Shown here: positions 13,035 through 42,388 of the stretch, in pieces
Position numbering within the stretch: the stretch's first letter is position 1
Layout: each line of letters opens with the position of its first letter
From: an uncultured Solirubrobacterales bacterium
GTDB lineage: Bacteria; Actinomycetota; Thermoleophilia; Solirubrobacterales; Solirubrobacteraceae
Assembly (NCBI GenBank): GCA_963844765.1
Contig: CAWJPN010000001.1
Coordinates: 218,565 to 282,564 of the forward strand
Direction: 5' to 3'
DNA length: 64,000 nt
The notes under the pieces: generated by a model
Told to the model about the DNA's origin: nothing
Seen by the model: only the letters and a program-made list of their open reading frames with translations
The model's database searches: none
Program-made: the position numbers and the translations under genes

Positions 13035-13079
13035 CGCGCCCGGCGCGATTCGAACGCGCGACCTCTCGCTCCGGAGGCG
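13035..13079 (-). repeat. attR of element A: displaced 3' half of tRNA-Arg(CCG)
   Basis: 13035-13076 identical (42 bp) to 26239-26280; 22-bp match to the intact tRNA at 42156-42177; no 5' half. Confidence 0.92.
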
Positions 13080-16071: not shown

Positions 16072-16410
16072 ATGAGTCAAGTTGATGCACCCCCACAGCT
16101 TTGCGGGGCGCCCGGTCGGAGCCCCAACGAAGCGCTGAGCTTCGCCGTTTTGCGCCTGCGGGCAAAGGGCATCTTCGCGGTGGACATCGCTCGCGCCGCC
16201 GGCATACATCCGAGCCGTTTGTCGCGCCTGCAGAACGGCCACCAGACGCCCACAGTCGACGAGGCGCGTCGGCTCGCGGACCTTTTAGAGCAGCCATCGG
16301 AGAGCCTGTTCCCCAGGCTCGCGCCTGTTAACGCGAGCGACGGCGCGGGGACCACCGCACCGTCGCTCAAAACTTCGCCGGGCGGCCAGGCCCAACATGC
16401 ACCAGCCTAG
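16072..16410 (+). CDS. XRE/Cro-like HTH protein, first gene of the A replication operon
   Basis: IARAAGIHPSRLSRLQNG..PT helix-turn-helix. Confidence 0.75.
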   Translation: MSQVDAPPQLCGAPGRSPNEALSFAVLRLRAKGIFAVDIARAAGIHPSRLSRLQNGHQTPTVDEARRLADLLEQPSESLFPRLAPVNASDGAGTTAPSLKTSPGGQAQHAPA

Positions 16411-16414
16411 CGCC
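16327..16414 (+). ncRNA. Candidate structured RNA (motif 1, copy A)
   Basis: Near-identical to 27961-28047; hairpin GAGCGACGG...CCGTCGCTC. Confidence 0.5.
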
Positions 16415-16801
16415 CCGTCCCGACGCGATCGGTCCAGCCAGCGGCCGGATCCGTTCGCACGGCCGCTCGATGCGCTGCTCCAGCGGCTCCGCGAGGCCGG
16501 GTTGCCCTATTACTGGTCGCAGACCGATCTCAAGATATGGAAAGCCGTTTGCCCAAGCTGCCGCGCGCCCGAATGGGGATTGAGCGTCCGCGAGAGCTAC
16601 GTCGGCGGGCAGGTCACGGTCCGGTGCGCCGGCGGGTGTTCGGACGGCGAGATCCGTACAGCTCTCGACGCGGCAGCACGCGAGGTCGATCCTTACGCGC
16701 TGGAGCTGGCCGTGCAGGCGCGTGATATCGCCGAGGCCGCACTCGCGCTCGGCGCCGCGCATGCCAAGGGCCAATCCCCCGAGTTAAGGGTGGCGGCGTG
16801 A
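16397..16801 (+). CDS. Stand-alone primase zinc-binding-domain-like protein
   Basis: VCPSC...RCAGGC; homologous to 28293-28670; GTGA overlap with the helicase. Confidence 0.6.
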   Translation: MHQPSAPSRRDRSSQRPDPFARPLDALLQRLREAGLPYYWSQTDLKIWKAVCPSCRAPEWGLSVRESYVGGQVTVRCAGGCSDGEIRTALDAAAREVDPYALELAVQARDIAEAALALGAAHAKGQSPELRVAA

Positions 16802-17975
16802 GCGATGCCCCGTTCCTCGAAAGCGCCGCCGACCTACTGGGCGAGCCCGACCCCGGCCCCACACCATTCCTCGTGGAGGGCCTGATCGTGGACCATTCGA
16901 TCGCAGCGGAGCAGGGGCCACCGAAGGTCGGGAAGACCTGGATCGCTCTAGAGACCGCCACGTCCGTCGTCACCGGCCTGCCAGCGTTCGGCCAATTCGC
17001 CACGCTCAAGGGTCCCGCCATCATCATCCTGGAGGAGTCCGGCCGCGCGGCCCTGCACCGGCGCCTCGACGCGCTTGCACGCGGCCGTGCGATCAAGCCC
17101 GACCAGCTCCGGGACCTGCACTTCGCCGCGAACCGCCGGGTACGCCTAGACGACCCGAAGTGGCGCGAGCGCATCCTCGCCGACGCCGGCAAGATCAAGC
17201 CACGGCTCGTCATCTTCGACCCGCTCGTCAGGCTGAAAGGGGCTGGCACGTCAGAGAACGACCAGGGCGAGATGGCGCACGTCCTGGACTTCCTACGCGA
17301 CCTCCGCGACGCCCTGGAGGCAGCCGTGCTGTTCGTCCACCACACCGGCCACGGCGGCACACACCTACGCGGCACATCCGACCTGGAGGGCTACTGGGAG
17401 TCCAAGCTCTCGCTCGCCGCCAACCCAGACGGCACCACCGAAGTCACCGCCGAACACCGCGAGGCCGAGGCGACCGAGCCGTTCCAGTTCCGCCAAGCAT
17501 GGGACCAACACGGCTCCGTGCGACTCGCAATCGTCGAAGACGGCCGCACACAACAACTCCGCGAAGCGATCACCGCACACGTCCGCGAGCACCCCGGAGA
17601 GCACGCCGACGGCATCGCCAAAGCCGTCCACAAACGCGCCGCAGACGTCCGCGCACAGCTCTCCGAACTCGAGAACGCCGGGACGCTCTACCGGCAAGCG
17701 TCCGAGTACCCGGACAAGGCCGGACGGCCAAAGCGCCGCGCCACATGGTTCCCCACACCACAAGCCAAAGAACAGCCATCAGTCGGCGTCCCAAACCACC
17801 GGACGCCCAACGAACAGCCGACCTCCGAAAGTGGCTCAGCGTCCCAGCGTCCCGCCTTTAACAAAGGCGGACGCGGGACGCCCACTGATCGGACACTCCG
17901 GACACGCTCCCAGAAGGCTGGTCACTCAACGACCTCGAAGCAGTCGCAGTCGAGCACCGAGAGGCCATCCAATGA
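16798..17975 (+). CDS. AAA_25/RepA-type replicative helicase, probable frameshift near the 3' end
   Basis: GPPKVGKT Walker A, LVIFDPL Walker B, FVHHTG, LRGTSDL; an alternative frame ends EGWSLNDLEAVAVEHREAIQ* with an ATGA overlap onto the next gene. Confidence 0.78.
17839..17881. promoter_or_regulatory. Candidate replication origin of A (long imperfect palindrome)
   Basis: GCGTCCC-A-GCGTCCCGCCTTT-AAC-AAAGGCGG-ACGC-GGGACGC at the 3' end of the helicase gene. Confidence 0.5.
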
Positions 17976-18436
17976 CGCCCCCGGTCGCCCTCGCGCAGCA
18001 CGCCCAGGCAGGCGATTCTCGGCGGTCGCTCGGCCTGACGCCGCGCGAGCTGCTGCTCGTTGAGGCCACGGCGCAGCGCGTGGTCGAGCTGCTGCGCGAG
18101 CGCGACGACGTGCCGCCCACTGGGCTCGTGACTGCCGGCGAGCTTGCAGCGGCTTTTGGCTGCTCACGGACGTGGTGCTACGAACACGCCGCCGAGCTGG
18201 GCGCCGTTCGCCTCGGCGATGGGCCGAAGGCGCGGCTCAGGTTCGACCTGGAGGCGGCGCGTGAGGCCCTTGCGGGTGGGGGTGTTCGCCCCGGCAGCGA
18301 GAGGTCTGACACCCGGATCGCTAGTGCTGGTGCGGGTTCTCGCCCGTCTGCTCAGCGTGGAGCCCGTCGCGTTGGCCACTATCGGCCAAAACCGGGGGCG
18401 ATTCTGCGCCCGCGCAGCACCGGGGTTCGACCGTGA
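17972..18436 (+). CDS. Excisionase-like winged-HTH protein (A)
   Basis: LVTAGELAAAFGCSRTWCYEHAAELGAVRLGDGPKARLRFD; homologous to 30198-30641. Confidence 0.7.
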   Translation: MTPPVALAQHAQAGDSRRSLGLTPRELLLVEATAQRVVELLRERDDVPPTGLVTAGELAAAFGCSRTWCYEHAAELGAVRLGDGPKARLRFDLEAAREALAGGGVRPGSERSDTRIASAGAGSRPSAQRGARRVGHYRPKPGAILRPRSTGVRP

Positions 18437-19278: not shown

Positions 19279-19604
19279 GCGCCGTTGAGCGACGCAAGGG
19301 TGCAGTCGCCGAGCGTGAGGTCGTCGCCTTGATCCGTGAGGCGGGTTGGCCGGATGCGAGGCGGACGCATGATGGTCGTGCTCAGGTGGGCCGCGGCGAC
19401 GTCGCAGGAGGCCCAGCAGGCGTCCACTGGGAGATCAAGCGGGTCGAGCGGCTGAGTGTGCCGGGGGCGCTCGCGCAGGTCCGCGCTGACGCCGATCCGG
19501 GAGACTTGCCGGTCCTTGTGCATCGCCCGTCGCGGGCCGACTGGATGGCGACAGTGCCGTTGGCTGACCTGCTGGCTCTGCTGGCGTTGAGGGAGCGGGC
19601 ATGA
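19275..19604 (+). CDS. PD-(D/E)xK Holliday-junction resolvase (Hjc-like)
   Basis: KGAVAEREV, GD, WEIK, PVLVHR..W. Confidence 0.75.
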   Translation: MSAVERRKGAVAEREVVALIREAGWPDARRTHDGRAQVGRGDVAGGPAGVHWEIKRVERLSVPGALAQVRADADPGDLPVLVHRPSRADWMATVPLADLLALLALRERA

Positions 19605-19873
19605 GCACGCCAGCAGGCACCCGTAGGGCACCTGGACGCCGGCCACTGCCCTTGCCGAGGTGGAAGGTGTCGATCGCCGCGCACGACATCCCACCACGCT
19701 GGCGCATTCCTGCGCAGACGCGGGCGGTGGGTGCGGCCTCGGCGGAGGCTGCGTGCATGGTGGCGGTGAGGTCCGCGCACAGGGAGGCCGGCGCCGCGCC
19801 GCTGCTCAGCCTGGTCGCCCTGTCGTTGGATCATGTGCGGGTTGAGCGTGTGGGGAGGCGTGATGGCTGCTAA
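19601..19873 (+). CDS. Conserved element protein (homolog of 30828-31094)
   Basis: Shared PLPxWxVxIxxHDIPPRWRIPA and PLLSxxALSLDH. Confidence 0.75.
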   Translation: MSTPAGTRRAPGRRPLPLPRWKVSIAAHDIPPRWRIPAQTRAVGAASAEAACMVAVRSAHREAGAAPLLSLVALSLDHVRVERVGRRDGC

Positions 19874-23479: not shown

Positions 23480-24043
23480 AAGGAATGTCATGGCGATTGA
23501 AGAGTTGGCTCAGGCCGCGAGCCTGAACCCGAGTCCCGCAACGAGCAGTCAGACGGTGGTGGCGCAGCAGGCCCGCGTTGTGTACGGCTGGAGCTACTGG
23601 GGGTGAGTCTTGTTCTTTCGCGCTGTGCCTGCAAGCGGTGCGTGTGCCAGCCGGCGCCTTCCCTTCATCGGGCGCCGTGGCGGGCCAGGGGCTTTCGTTC
23701 CTTTCACCCCTGGCCCGCCGCCTGGCGCGATTGGTTTCGTGGCGGGTCCTCTTCTCCCTGTCGCGGGATGGTGAGCGCCCGGCGTGGTTCGTGATGGTCT
23801 CGCGCCGGGCAGCTCCCAAAGCAAGGGATATGTCGCATCGTCCGACACTTCGGGGCCGTGTCAGCGCTCCGCTTCGACGGCGGCTGTCAGCTCCGTGATC
23901 GTCAGGTCGAGTGCGGCTGCGACCGCGCAGATCGTGCTCCAGGCGGGGTCGGACTGTCCGAGCTACCGGCAATCGTGCTCGTGATCTGCCTGGTCTTCCC
24001 TGCTCGCGGGCGTGGTGTGCGCCGTGATCCTTGGCTGGCAGGT

Positions 24044-24280
24044 CTAGGCGGGGGTGTCCTCGGTGGCCTGCGCGAGCTCGGAGACGGATACGCCGAGCCC
24101 GGCCGCGATGCGCGCGACGGTCGTCCACGCCGGGTTGGATGTGCCGCGCTCGGCGCGGACGTACGCCGTGACGCTCAACCCGGAGCGGTGGATCACGTCC
24201 TCCTGCGTCATGCCGCGCTCTGCCCGCAGGCGACGGATCGCGGCGGCGAGCGCGGGGTCGGGCGGTTCCCTTGTTGGCAT
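24044..24280 (-). CDS. XRE-family repressor (A)
   Basis: IRRLRAERGMTQEDV..SGLS..ERG..NP.W.TV; DNA-level homolog of 36271-36501. Confidence 0.88.
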   Translation of the reverse strand: MPTREPPDPALAAAIRRLRAERGMTQEDVIHRSGLSVTAYVRAERGTSNPAWTTVARIAAGLGVSVSELAQATEDTPA

Positions 24281-24335: not shown

Positions 24336-24362
24336 AGTGAACCTGTACCGTTTTGCGCGCCT

Positions 24363-24447
24363 CGGCGCTCATCCCCACAGGACGCCGCCCTGGCACGTGG
24401 GCCGGCGTCGGGTGCGCTCGATATCACGCCCGGCGTCGGCTCCTACA
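24363..24447 (+). ncRNA. Candidate structured leader RNA (motif 2, copy A)
   Basis: High identity to 36586-36674; two hairpins with wobble-compatible changes. Confidence 0.55.
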
Positions 24448-26238: not shown

Positions 26239-26280
26239 CGCGCCCGGCGCGATTCGAACGCGCGACCTCTCGCTCCGGAG
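26239..26280 (-). repeat. A/B junction att: second copy of the tRNA-Arg 3' half
   Basis: Identical to 13035-13076; identity to the intact tRNA begins at the anticodon loop CTCCGGA. Confidence 0.92.
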
Positions 26281-27692: not shown

Positions 27693-27762
27693 ATCCCCCG
27701 CCTCGTTAACGGCCTGACGGCGCCGCCAGCCATCGCAGCCGCTCCAAGGTCTAACGTGATGC

Positions 27763-28044
27763 GTGCAAATTGGCATTGGTGATTCAACCCCAGCCCCCGA
27801 GACGATTCGGGGGCTTCGCCGCGCCGCCCGACTGAGCCAGCAGCAACTCGCCGAAGAGGCTCGGGTCTCAATCAACAGCGTCCGGCTGTTCGAGCAGGGA
27901 TACCGACCAGGCCGCTCAAAAGCCCTGCGTCGCGTGCTCAAAGTCCTCGCCAGCGACCCCGTTAACGAGAACGACGGCGCGGAAACCACCGCACCGTCGC
28001 TCGAAACTTCGCCGGGCGGCCAGGCCCAACATGCCGCAGGCTAG
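27763..28044 (+). CDS. XRE/Cro-like HTH protein, first gene of the B replication operon
   Basis: IRGLRRAARLSQQQLAEEARVS..E.G; C-tail homologous to that of 16072-16410. Confidence 0.8.
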   Translation: MQIGIGDSTPAPETIRGLRRAARLSQQQLAEEARVSINSVRLFEQGYRPGRSKALRRVLKVLASDPVNENDGAETTAPSLETSPGGQAQHAAG

Positions 28045-28047
28045 CGC
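27961..28047 (+). ncRNA. Candidate structured RNA (motif 1, copy B)
   Basis: Near-identical to 16327-16414. Confidence 0.5.
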
Positions 28048-28104
28048 ACCCCAAGGACGCGACGCGCTGGACGCAGATGCCTGCCCGCACGGGGGGCGCT
28101 GCTT

Positions 28105-28296
28105 GTGACCGGGCTGCTTGACCAGCTCGCCGCGCGCTGGGCCGACGCGAGTCGCCAGCGTGCGCGCGCCGGCGATCACAAGCGTGAGCAGCCCGCAGTC
28201 GGTGAGCAAGAGCTGACGGGCGCTGAGCGCGAGCGGGTGCTTCGCGAGCTTCACGAAGATCCCGACTGGGGCGATCAGCCGTGGGGGCGCTCATGA
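28105..28296 (+). CDS. Small hypothetical protein
   Basis: Coupled overlaps on both sides. Confidence 0.5.
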   Translation: MTGLLDQLAARWADASRQRARAGDHKREQPAVGEQELTGAERERVLRELHEDPDWGDQPWGRS

Positions 28297-28670
28297 GCCG
28301 GTCGGACTGGCCCCTCGATCGCGCCCTCGAACGCCTGCGGGTTTACCGCTTGCCGTACCGCTGGGACGAGCAGCACCTATCGACATGGGCGGCCGTCTGT
28401 CCCGCGTGCATGGTCGGCGCCTGGACGCTCACGATCCGAGAGCATGGGCGTGGCGGCCCAATCGACCTTCGCTGTAGCGCGGGATGCGACTCGGCCGACG
28501 TGGCTGCGGTGCTGGAGCGCGACCCCGCTGAGGATCGCATCGAGGAAGCTGAGCAGCGCGCCCGCGAAGCAATCGAGATCGCCGCCGCGTCACGTGACGT
28601 CGCCGCCCGAGCGATCGCGTTCGTCGTCGCCATCCTCGACGAAGACCCTGAACTCGCGAGGGCGGCATGA
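28293..28670 (+). CDS. Stand-alone primase zinc-binding-domain-like protein
   Basis: VCPAC..LTIRE...LRCSAGC; homolog of 16397-16801. Confidence 0.6.
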   Translation: MSRSDWPLDRALERLRVYRLPYRWDEQHLSTWAAVCPACMVGAWTLTIREHGRGGPIDLRCSAGCDSADVAAVLERDPAEDRIEEAEQRAREAIEIAAASRDVAARAIAFVVAILDEDPELARAA

Positions 28671-30079
28671 GCCGAAAGGAAGATCACGCCCTCGGGACAG
28701 TCGGTGAACCATCCGAGACGCCCGTGGGCGCCTACCAGCTGAGCGACCTCGGCAACGCCGAGCGCCTGATCGCCGCGCACGGCGATGACCTGCGCTGGAT
28801 TCCGGGCCTGGGGTGGTTCGCCTGGGACGGGCGGCGATGGCAGCGCGACGAAACGGGCGAGCCGCTGCGCCGCGCGAAGCTGGCCGTCCGCGCGATCCTG
28901 CACGACGCCGCGAACTGCGACGACGACGACGAGCGCAAGGCGACCGCCAAGTGGGCGCGCGCATCGGAAGCCGAGCCGCGGCTGCGTGCCGCGGTGTCGC
29001 TCGCGGCGAGCGAGCGCCGCGTGATCGCCCACGCAGCCGACTTGGACGCGGACCAGTGGGCCTTCAACACACGCGCGGGGACGATCGACCTGCGTACCGG
29101 AGAGCTGCGCCCACACCGACGCGAGGACATGCTGACGAAGCTCGCCCCGGTCGCGTACGACCCGGACGCACGGTGCCCCGTGTGGATGAAGTTCCTGCGC
29201 ACCATCTTCGCCGACGACCAGGAGCTGATCGGGTACGTGCAACGGTGGGCGGGCTACTCGCTCACGGGGTCCACGCGCGAGCAGGTGATCGCGTTGTGCT
29301 GGGGCGCCGGCTCCAACGGCAAGAGCACCCTTCAGGAGACGCTACGCCGCGCCCTCGGCGACTACGCCACACACACCCCCAGCTCCACGCTGCTTGAGCG
29401 CGACCACGGCGACGCGATCCCGAACGACCTCGCCCGTCTGCGCGGCGCCCGGCTCGTCACGGCATCGGAGACCGGCGACGGCCGCCGCCTCGATGAGGAG
29501 CGCGTGAAGGCGATCACCGGCTCCGATGTCATCGCCGCGCGCTACATGCGCGCCGAGTGGTTTGAGTTCGCGCCGAACTTCAAGGTGTGGGCCTCGACCA
29601 ACCACCTGCCGCGAGTGCGCGGAACCGACCACGCCCTGTGGCGACGAATCCGGCTGATCCCCTTCAGCGTCACGATCGCCGACGAGGACCAGGACCGCGA
29701 CCTCCCCGACAAACTCACCCGCGAGCTACCCGGCATCCTCGCGTGGGCCGTACGCGGCTGCCTGGACTGGCAACACAACGGCCTCGGCGCACCAACAGCC
29801 GTCACCACGGCGACACACGAGTACCGCACCGACATGGACCTCATCGGACGGTTCCTCGCCGACTGCTGCGAGGTCAACCCCACCGCCGAGGTCGAGGCCG
29901 CGACGCTCTGGAGCGCCTTCTGCACCTGGGCGGAGGCGAACCACGAGCGCACCGGCACACAGACGACATTCGGACGCCAGCTCACCGAGCGCGGCTTCGA
30001 CACCACCAGGCAAGCCAAGGTGCGCAAGCGCCGAGGACTCACCCTGCTGCCAGACAACGGCGCCGAGGTGACGCGATGA
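28667..30079 (+). CDS. Phage/plasmid P4-family D5-like SF3 helicase
   Basis: SDLGNAERL (D5_N), GAGSNGKST Walker A, RLVTASE, NHLP, ALWRRI. Confidence 0.92.
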   Translation: MSRKEDHALGTVGEPSETPVGAYQLSDLGNAERLIAAHGDDLRWIPGLGWFAWDGRRWQRDETGEPLRRAKLAVRAILHDAANCDDDDERKATAKWARASEAEPRLRAAVSLAASERRVIAHAADLDADQWAFNTRAGTIDLRTGELRPHRREDMLTKLAPVAYDPDARCPVWMKFLRTIFADDQELIGYVQRWAGYSLTGSTREQVIALCWGAGSNGKSTLQETLRRALGDYATHTPSSTLLERDHGDAIPNDLARLRGARLVTASETGDGRRLDEERVKAITGSDVIAARYMRAEWFEFAPNFKVWASTNHLPRVRGTDHALWRRIRLIPFSVTIADEDQDRDLPDKLTRELPGILAWAVRGCLDWQHNGLGAPTAVTTATHEYRTDMDLIGRFLADCCEVNPTAEVEAATLWSAFCTWAEANHERTGTQTTFGRQLTERGFDTTRQAKVRKRRGLTLLPDNGAEVTR

Positions 30080-30641: not shown

Positions 30642-30831
30642 CGCCGCCAGGAAACCGGCGGTCGAGCCGTGCTACTGCTGCGGCAAGCTCGCGCGCCGCC
30701 GAGTCGAGGTCCGGGACCGGCGCACCGGCGCGACGGCTTGGCTGCCGCTCTGCGCGACCTGCCTCGCGGGCGAGTCGCGCACGTGGCGCCTGCGCTGGGC
30801 GCTCCTCGCCGATGAGGAGGCAGCACCGTGA
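30634..30831 (+). CDS. Small Zn-finger protein
   Basis: CYCCG..LCATC..WRLRW; homolog of 18791-18991. Confidence 0.6.
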   Translation: MPDAARKPAVEPCYCCGKLARRRVEVRDRRTGATAWLPLCATCLAGESRTWRLRWALLADEEAAP

Positions 30832-31094
30832 GCGCGGCGCGCGAGAGTCCACGCCGGGCACCTGGACGCCGGCCGCTGCCGACGTGGGAGGTGGCGATCG
30901 GCGAGCACGACATCCCGCCGCGGTGGCGCATCCCGGCGGGCACGGTGACGCTGGCCGCTGTCAGCGCGGAGGCGGCGCGCACGATGGCCGTGCGCGCGGC
31001 GCACCGCGACGCCGGCGTGCCGCCTCTGCTCTCGATGATCGCCCTCTCGCTGGATCACACGCGCGCTGAGCGGGAGGCCGAGCCGTGCCGTTGA
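30828..31094 (+). CDS. Conserved element protein (homolog of 19601-19873)
   Basis: HDIPPRWRIPA shared. Confidence 0.75.
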   Translation: MSAARESPRRAPGRRPLPTWEVAIGEHDIPPRWRIPAGTVTLAAVSAEAARTMAVRAAHRDAGVPPLLSMIALSLDHTRAEREAEPCR

Positions 31095-36123: not shown

Positions 36124-36270
36124 TGGGCACCGTCGCCGTGGTGTTCGTGGGCTGCCTCGCGTGCGCTGCGATCCTCGCGTGGCACGTGGATGACGGGGGC
36201 GAGGGAAGATGAGCGCTCACCCGCGTTTCGCCGCCCGCGTGTACGCGCGGGGCGGCCTCGGCCGGCAGGT

Positions 36271-36501
36271 CTAGGCGGCGGTGTCCTCGATGGCCTGCGC
36301 CAGCTCGGCGACCGACATCCCGAAGGTCTTGGCGATCCGTTCGATCGTGCCCCACAGCGGATCGACCTTGCCACGTTCGAGCTTCGAGAGGCCGGAGACG
36401 TTCAGCCGCGCGGCGAACGCGACATCCTCCTGTGTCATCGAGCGTGCTTCTCGGAGCCGCTTGACGGTCGGCCCAACGGCAGGATTCGGCGGCGCACGCA
36501 C
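36271..36501 (-). CDS. XRE-family repressor (B, module 2)
   Basis: VKRLREARSMTQEDV..LERG..DP.W.TI; homolog of 24044-24280. Confidence 0.88.
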   Translation of the reverse strand: MRAPPNPAVGPTVKRLREARSMTQEDVAFAARLNVSGLSKLERGKVDPLWGTIERIAKTFGMSVAELAQAIEDTAA

Positions 36502-36585
36502 GCAATAAACATCCCGCAGTCCGCCTACCAAAGTCCAGGGACGGCAGTCCATAGACTCCGGGGCGTGTATCGTTTTCGAGCGCGC

Positions 36586-36674
36586 CGGCGCTCATCCCCA
36601 CAGGGTGCCGCCCTGGCACGCGGGACCCCCGGCGTCGGGTGCGCTCAACATCACACCCGGCGTCGGGGCCTACA
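36586..36674 (+). ncRNA. Candidate structured leader RNA (motif 2, copy B)
   Basis: Matches 24363-24447. Confidence 0.55.
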
Positions 36675-42054: not shown

Positions 42055-42132
42055 TTTGGAGGGTGACTGGGGTGGTGTTGCGGTCGCCGGCGGAGCCTCA
42101 GATTTGGCTCTATAGCTGGCGATACGGGGTAA

Positions 42133-42205
<73 letters not shown>

Positions 42206-42388
42206 AGGCGACGCCGCGGAACGGCGCCTTCGGTCTTGGGAGCTTAGCGCCAGCGCCAAGTGCGCATCGTGGGCGCTGTCCCCGTCTTGGGCGTGGGGCG
42301 GGCACGTGGGCGGGGTGAGCGTGGGACACCGCGAGCCGCGCGCCGTGGTGCCCACGGCGAGAGCCGTCCCACCGCTACCGTTGCCTCC

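Follow-up and report, generated by a model that had tools for sequence, protein, structure and literature searches.

A conserved minus-strand hairpin at the 3' end of regulator genes in satellite-like islands of Solirubrobacterales: a candidate small antisense RNA gene

Two tandem islands with a common cassette

The window, that is, the whole 64,000-nt stretch of DNA from an uncultured Solirubrobacterales bacterium that was analysed here, harbors two integrated islands in tandem, A (~13.2 kb) and B (~15.9 kb), at a tRNA-Arg(CCG) gene (42132-42206, minus strand). The islands are bounded by repeats of the 3' part of this tRNA gene; the two displaced copies have the same sequence, which matches that inside the intact gene at 86% identity. 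In both islands, a rightward operon leads from an Xre-type HTH gene via the gene for a Cys-rich small protein to that for a replication protein:

13035-13076, 26239-26280 and 42133-42174: repeated 42-nt 3' part of tRNA-Arg(CCG), bounding the two tandem islands
16072-16410, plus strand: HTH-A gene (Xre type; Pfam HTH_3 and HTH_31), first in the rightward operon of island A
16397-16801, plus strand: Cys-rich small protein of A (an ORF with homologues found), the presumed direct target cistron
16798-18063, plus strand: AAA_25 (RepA-like) replication protein of A (Pfam AAA_25, 4.5e-27)
27763-28044, plus strand: HTH-B gene (Xre type; Pfam HTH_31)
28031-28108, plus strand: 25-codon leader ORF of B, which retains the N-terminus of the Cys-rich protein, MPQASAPQGRD
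28667-30079, plus strand: D5_N/DUF5906 primase-helicase of B (Pfam D5_N, 3.7e-34)

The Cys-rich protein is 42% identical between the islands, and the replication proteins are unlike each other, with an AAA_25 protein in A versus a D5_N primase-helicase in B. The ATG of the ORF that follows the HTH gene lies 11 nt ahead of the HTH stop codon, the Cys-rich and AAA_25 ORFs of A overlap by 4 nt (16798-16801), and the ORFs of island B up to the primase overlap at GTGA (28105-28108), over 16 nt (28281-28296) and at ATGA (28667-28670), an arrangement which suggests that the operon is translationally coupled. The Cys-rich gene of B is seemingly split into the 25-codon ORF, an unrelated 63-aa ORF and the Cys-rich core (28031-28108, 28105-28296 and 28281-28670, respectively). 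Proteins of islands A and B are 31-68% identical, the best-conserved pair being a protein of ~90 aa (19601-19873 and 30828-31094, 68% identity) encoded beside genes read as those of small terminase subunits. A pair of DNA segments of 85-89% identity (24029-24096 and 36256-36323; 24351-24447 and 36574-36674) adjoins a small minus-strand gene (24044-24280 in A, 36271-36552 in B), the product of which is 50% identical between the islands; this second similar pair may represent another shared regulatory region.

The longest direct repeat of the window (16324-16428 in A, 27958-28062 in B; 105 nt, 86% identity) is located at the end of the two HTH genes. By blastn, the cassette within this repeat is 89% identical between A and B over 93 nt, and it occurs in just these two copies in the 3.7-Mb genome. 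The HTH domains encoded upstream cannot be aligned by BLASTP, and solely the 26-aa tail of the two proteins aligns (85%). An initial annotation of this DNA had thus correctly described ~88 nt of similarity behind HTH domains that do not align, as well as a 30-nt identical run with the next start codon, which is present in both copies and holds the ATG. It had overlooked the coding status of the segment, which is not intergenic: the cassette is formed by the last 28 codons of the first HTH ORF of each island (A 16072-16410, B 27763-28044) and the start of the next cistron.

16324-16410: cassette copy A, made up of the final 28 HTH-A codons and overlapping the beginning of the following cistron, with invariant blocks common to B and to a third copy, C
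27958-28044: cassette copy B, identified as the longest repeat and by its blastn match to A
16370-16399 and 28004-28033, plus strand: 30-nt run AAACTTCGCCGGGCGGCCAGGCCCAACATG, identical in A, B and C, comprising the translation-initiation region and the ATG of the next cistron
27700-27747, plus strand: degenerate echo, in direct orientation, of the cassette's 5' half, just upstream of HTH-B, aligning to the first 50 nt of the cassette

Two blocks, one of 18 nt and one of 31 nt, are invariant among the copies A, B and C, while the variable sites are concentrated in the loop of the hairpin described below, in its flanks and just after the ATG. The differences between the three copies are mostly non-synonymous in the HTH frame, and Pfam has no match in the tail of either HTH protein of the window. 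A comparison of GC3 between tail and HTH domain was uninformative. A minus-strand ORF through the cassette (MLGLAARRSFERR...) was dropped as a candidate, as the differences are mostly non-synonymous and no stop occurs within the predicted RNA. An integron attC-like site or palindromic operator (CTCGTTAACGAG) was set aside as well, since an integron integrase gene was not noticed in the vicinity and the left half-site is not conserved in A, C and a further copy, D.

With respect to the partial echoes of the cassette that had been reported upstream in B, the hexamer GTTAAC is indeed found at 27705, which together with the two cassettes accounts for all three occurrences in the 64 kb, and the alignment of 27700-27747 to the first 50 nt of the cassette beats shuffled sequences (p ~0.014). 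The echo has no significant fold (z = +0.8) and no counterpart in A; a role as a second functional copy was rejected for lack of a fold, and the B-only echo is probably a relic. Elsewhere in islands A and B there is no direct or inverted match, or complementary site, of at least 12 nt to the cassette, and trans-complementary repeats occur at chance level.

Further copies and their genomic context

Beyond A and B, 12 copies were identified, residing in one metagenome contig and in 11 genomes of the same Solirubrobacterales family and falling into ~12 lineages; the set is small (n = 14), with 13 of the 14 from one genus, and the hosts of the related loci are Solirubrobacterales. Copy C was found by a protein search with HTH-B, on a metagenome contig of 1.1-1.3 kb (L021, identical to L171). 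Here, the same ~87 nt stand behind a different regulator, of the HTH_17/excisionase type, and upstream of a gene with a weak match to RepB-like primases. This was the one relative to which the HTH-B search led; the equivalent search with the HTH protein of copy D led to none. Copy D itself (L027) was found with a minus-strand covariance model built from A, B and C alone (24.5 bits, E = 2.5e-4), and copies E-H (L172, L173, L174 and L179) with a second covariance model run over 400 genomes of the genus. A search blind to structure, which used the HTH_17 domain profile alone on 256 genomes of the genus, returned six more homologues with a tail of 25-35 residues (L202, L203, L204, L205, L207 and L208) and three without a tail (L200, L201 and L206). 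A fourth tail-less case, L025, is an Xre gene homologous to HTH-A which ends exactly where the cassette of A starts. These four tail-less genes served as controls: they have no hairpin, and the -10-like motif TANNNT described below is absent at the equivalent position.

All copies sit at the 3' end of an HTH gene of the Xre or excisionase type, and all tail-bearing copies are located ahead of replication modules, which consist of AAA_25, D5-primase or Prim-Pol genes or of a Cys-rich gene followed by AAA_25. One locus (L199, identical to L174; genome G859) has an in-frame TAA stop in its HTH_17 gene, while its hairpin, with one wobble position, and its hexamer TAGACT are intact. It may be that the RNA element outlasts the protein gene in which it sits.

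Wider searches yielded no additional copies. In the family-wide covariance scan, the remaining matches were ordinary terminator-like hairpins after chromosomal genes; a third model (R3), applied to 131 genomes largely overlapping the earlier sample, was too generic and gave coding-region noise alone; and a blastn search with the cassette in 400 genomes of the order yielded chance matches alone. The phage collection held no cassette match and the plasmid collection three partial matches at chance level (E 0.3-1). In viral contigs, an exact-pattern scan found nothing, and a gapped pattern gave 117 chance matches, none of them in the right context. Back-translated tail peptides of the A/B/C type returned nothing from 185,579 species genomes or the JGI metagenomes; divergent copies are invisible to these patterns because the latter required A/B/C-type peptides. 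In five related Solirubrobacterales genomes (L032-L036, ~2815-2960), judged from sequence, a Cys-rich gene lies behind an SSB-like gene, and the well-conserved 140-nt spacer between the two contains a terminator-like hairpin and a motif, GGCGGGCCAGGCTCGAC, which resembles part of the 30-nt run. Homology of this leader to the run was not convincing.

Structure, strand and flanking motifs of the hairpin

The hairpin proposed in the initial annotation is present in the cassette. In A it reads GAGCGACGG-C-GCGG / loop / CCGC-A-CCGTCGCTC, with 16335-16348 pairing with 16355-16368 at 93% complementarity.

16335-16368, minus strand: hairpin A, 14-bp stem and 6-nt loop (fold -37.4 kcal/mol, z = -2.8)
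27969-28002, minus strand: hairpin B, with two A·C-type mismatches on the plus strand, both of which are G·U on the minus strand
16404-16409, minus strand: -10-like hexamer TAGGCT of copy A, the complement of which gives the TA of the HTH-A stop codon TAG (16408-16410)
28038-28043, minus strand: -10-like hexamer TAGCCT of copy B, overlapping the HTH-B stop codon TAG (28042-28044)

Every copy forms an uninterrupted minus-strand hairpin of 9-14 bp (z -2.6 to -3.8), and covariation of the hairpin is seen over 13-14 copies. When 13 copies were aligned, 97.6% of the cells paired and changes on both sides were observed in 10 of the 14 pairs (32 cells), in alignments which were fitted to the model and hence favor the structure, the per-sequence folds being independent of the fitting. 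None of 500 shuffles matched this result, and slid partner columns paired at 34-57%; an alignment of eight copies gave the same picture. The tail peptides encoded by the same nucleotides are unlike between lineages (e.g. NDGAETTAPSLETSPGG, NRPADGGPVQKLSDG and NDHDPADNRVVGRVG), with those of the D, G, H and L202-L208 lineages differing from the tails of A, B, C, E and F. The tail peptide varies while the hairpin covaries, and the constraint therefore acts on the pairing, not on the protein. The pattern of substitutions indicates that the hairpin is kept by compensatory changes and is under selection. Conservation caused by protein constraint, which had been named as a possible cause of the similarity, is accordingly contradicted by the covariation, by the variable tail peptide and by the mostly non-synonymous differences among A, B and C.

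It is thus very improbable that the locus holds no dedicated element at all, with the hairpin a chance feature of a conserved protein tail or of a mosaic joint left by recent recombination. Copies A, B and C hardly differ and have a narrow distribution, the absence of their type of peptide from the 185,579 species genomes and the JGI metagenomes would fit a recent exchange, and the tail is in frame in every copy. However, the divergent lineages hold the hairpin by compensatory changes while the peptide changes, the differences within the A/B/C group are mostly non-synonymous, and hairpin, TANNNT and tail either occur together or are all missing.

The polarity of the hairpin is apparent from its wobble positions. 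In A, pairing on the minus strand is perfect including one U·G, while the same position on the plus strand is a C·A mismatch. When all 14 copies were analysed with a hairpin finder in which G·U and A·C carry the same score, the plus strand had 31 A·C or C·A oppositions and not a single G·U; all 31 are G·U on the minus strand, and 14 of them come from the six copies found via the HTH_17 domain, blind to structure. The minus-strand fold is the more stable one in seven of eight copies, by up to 12.6 kcal/mol, and on the plus strand copies F and H fold no better than shuffled sequences do (z = -1.0 and -0.8). The asymmetry of 31 to 0 therefore argues that the hairpin has been selected as a single strand of minus polarity, antisense to the operon. 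As G·T wobbles are tolerated in single-stranded DNA, this asymmetry reveals the strand and not the RNA nature of the element.

A role of the hairpin in the sense mRNA, be it in termination, in attenuation or in coupling the HTH gene to the replication genes, which would come near the attenuation idea of the initial annotation, is already disfavored by this asymmetry, and we judge it to have very little chance of being correct. In phage lambda, tR1 and nutR follow cro, and the position of the hairpin resembles that arrangement; copies A and G fold well on the plus strand, and RNAalifold draws a short helix which encloses the cassette and shows one compensatory change. Against this stand the plus-strand mismatches and the poor folds of F and H, as well as the location within a translated ORF and the plus-strand 3' flank of the hairpin, which is A/G-rich and not U-rich.

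On the minus strand, the hairpin is preceded by a -10-like hexamer and followed by a U-rich tail. In segments of 137-161 nt, TANNNT occurs exactly once per lineage on the minus strand and never on the plus strand in 12 of 12 lineages, compared to an expectation from genome frequency of 2.2 per strand in total. The hexamer (TAGGCT, TAGCCT, TAAGCT, TAAACT, TATGCT, TACGCT, TAGACT, TAGTCT or TAGGAT) lies 27-43 nt 5' of the hairpin in 13 of the 14 copies and 65 nt 5' in copy E; T1, A2 and T6 never change, in contrast to the middle positions. Actinobacterial -10 elements usually take the form TANNNT and have no -35 box. A conserved -35 box was not found across the copies, and a generic promoter scan was negative. 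In 13 copies, the TA of the hexamer is that of the HTH stop codon on the plus strand, and the HTH genes end with TAG or TAA in 14 of 14 copies and never with TGA, which makes up 63% of the stops in long open frames of the genome. In most copies, T6 stands opposite the A at the third position of an HTH-frame codon for a varying amino acid (CCA, TCA, ACA, CAA, GAA or GCA), and in copy D the hexamer stands apart from the stop codon at an unchanged distance to the hairpin. Conservation of the hexamer could partly reflect constraints from coding or coupling, since the motif overlaps the stop codon as well as the initial codons of the following gene.

The 14 nt 3' of the hairpin on the minus strand contain 4-7 U in 13 of the 14 copies (~2 expected), and the tails read UCGUU(A/U)..., UCUUUUG, CAUUUUC or UGUUGUUUG. 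The U-tract is weaker than a canonical one and interrupted, and in copy A, where the tail is GCGUUAAC, it has 2 U. A generic terminator scan (GC-rich hairpin with 5 or more U among the next 8 nt) flagged B on the minus strand and nothing in A.

A predicted antisense RNA ahead of replication genes

On balance, we consider it somewhat more likely than not that the cassette represents a small cis-antisense RNA gene on the minus strand, within the C-terminal extension of the first HTH gene. The hairpin with its polarity, the -10-like motif, the tail and the genomic context are observed; transcription, ends, target and effect of this RNA are what we infer.

16327-16397, minus strand: predicted antisense RNA of copy A, ~70 nt, ends deduced from the -10 position, hairpin and tail
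27961-28031, minus strand: predicted antisense RNA of copy B, ~70 nt, ends likewise deduced

A -10-only promoter of the TANNNT type just inside the next cistron, the complement of which supplies the HTH stop codon TAG, would give rise to an RNA of ~55-80 nt, comprising a 5' segment of 20-36 nt, the GC-rich hairpin with its G·U wobbles and the U-rich tail (UCGUU...). The predicted 5' segment is exactly complementary to the ribosome-binding region and start codon of the post-HTH cistron, to which in A, B and C the 30-nt run belongs; the sequence of this segment differs between lineages, yet in every copy it lies over the region in which the next cistron starts. Pairing of the RNA with the sense mRNA would block initiation or re-initiation at the post-HTH cistron, or cause cleavage of the mRNA. 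If translation of this first cistron were blocked, the replication proteins (AAA_25, D5 primase or Prim-Pol) would be expected to be held down as well, because the ORFs of the operon overlap, which suggests coupling. The tail of the HTH protein would then be a by-product of an ORF that crosses the GC-rich RNA gene and finds its end at the AT-rich -10 box. Since RNA and target would be almost alike in A and B, cross-regulation between the two islands would be expected. It might further be speculated, though we hold this to be doubtful, that the cassette is a portable RNA-immunity module, moved by recombination between satellite-like islands with unrelated regulators and replicases and defining cross-immunity groups, so that the RNA of a resident island would silence the replication operon of an incoming or neighboring island with the same cassette. 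Such a module would explain why the cassettes of A, B and a third island from another sample are ~90% identical while other DNA has diverged.

A minus-strand RNA of the same anatomy might have another job, namely to act in trans on a transcript of a helper phage or the host, or to stop stray antisense transcription into the regulator region. A shared external target would fit the observation that A, B and C are nearly identical although their islands differ in regulators and replicases. However, islands A and B contain no other copy or complementary site of at least 12 nt, the phage, plasmid and viral collections hold no match, and the predicted 5' segment stays over the start of the next cistron though its sequence varies by lineage; we therefore regard such a role as unlikely. 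Less probable still is that the hairpin functions as minus-strand single-stranded DNA, for example as a priming or strand-initiation signal in the replication or transfer of the island. The strand asymmetry is compatible with G·T pairs, the element adjoins replication genes, and a signal recognised by the host would account for its sharing among islands with different replicases; such a signal would leave the invariant TANNNT at a fixed distance and the U(T)-rich tail unexplained, and the freely variable stem sequence and the location in the coding region of the operon also speak against it.

The initial annotation had placed the candidate RNA at a position equivalent to that of the CI immunity RNA of satellite phage P4. 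P4 CI is processed from the untranslated leader of the sense strand, pairs with the flanking repeats seqA and seqC and terminates transcription (PMC4825925), and the premise that CI follows the first HTH gene is at odds with this description. The islands are organised like satellites, B has a P4-type D5_N primase, and an echo of the cassette occurs upstream in B. The structure is, however, on the opposite strand and inside an ORF, Rfam has no C4/CI match, the echo is direct, degenerate, unfolded and restricted to B, and no repeated target is common to A and B, so that a processed sense-strand RNA of this type, causing premature termination by pairing with repeated targets, can practically be dismissed. 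What the predicted antisense RNA would have in common with CI is that an RNA, not a protein repressor, is proposed to silence satellite replication genes from a position upstream of the primase operon; it differs in being antisense, in a coding region, with no paired target repeats and no homology to CI. The more general proposal of an RNA-based immunity or attenuation switch thus holds insofar as the cassette is a structured, covarying RNA candidate, probably regulatory and placed where it could control replication genes, while the kind of RNA and its strand had been misassigned.

Plasmid countertranscripts control rep translation via a coupled leader ORF, as in R1 (CopA/CopT-tap-repA) and in IncB/IncI plasmids (RNAI-repY-repZ). 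The candidate RNA is similar in that it is short and lies opposite the leader and translation start of the first cistron of the replication operon, with a stem-loop and a single-stranded part over the ribosome-binding site and start codon, in an operon in which replication genes are joined by overlapping stop and start codons and which in B includes a 25-codon leader ORF. In contrast to the plasmid systems, the hosts of the cassette are integrated satellite-like islands of Solirubrobacterales, the C-terminal extension of the upstream regulator gene houses the RNA gene, the putative -10 box of which also serves as the stop codon of that regulator gene, and the cassette is common to islands with unrelated regulators and replicases; there is also no relationship by sequence or in Rfam. 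Judged by its layout, the cassette would be most like the plasmid countertranscripts in function, yet it belongs to no described family. Rfam searches (gathering score and E <= 10) of the window and of L002, L021 and L027 gave no family match, the one sub-threshold hit being ctRNA_pGA1 (RF00236) for copy A alone. This antisense rep regulator of an actinobacterial Corynebacterium plasmid, from a high-GC Gram-positive host, has a GC-rich 14-bp terminal hairpin similar to that of the cassette. Membership was rejected, as the match is confined to the plus strand of copy A, its 20 bits fall short of the gathering score, which is 45 (E = 0.04 when searching 131 nt), and B, C and D have no match.

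The cassette hairpin also resembles intrinsic terminators of the family (L158, L161 and L162; genomes G530, G293 and G499), which have GC-rich hairpins of 11-14 bp with AACGA...UCGUU(A) flanks and score 29-34 bits with the covariance model. These hairpins look like the local form of bidirectional intrinsic terminators. They follow ordinary chromosomal genes, whereas the hairpin of the cassette is embedded in an ORF, has no convergent gene beside it and is accompanied by TANNNT at a fixed distance.

If the predicted antisense RNA is expressed, it would constitute a new structured-RNA family, absent from Rfam and from a poorly studied actinobacterial order, with unusually clean support in the form of compensatory changes and wobble pairs confined to one strand. 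It would provide RNA-based replication control for satellite-like islands outside the Proteobacteria, similar to P4 immunity in its role and to a plasmid countertranscript in its build. It would also show that, in a GC-rich genome, a small-RNA gene can be hidden in the coding extension of a neighboring gene and, with respect to annotation, that HTH tails of ~28 residues such as these are by-products of an RNA gene and not protein domains.
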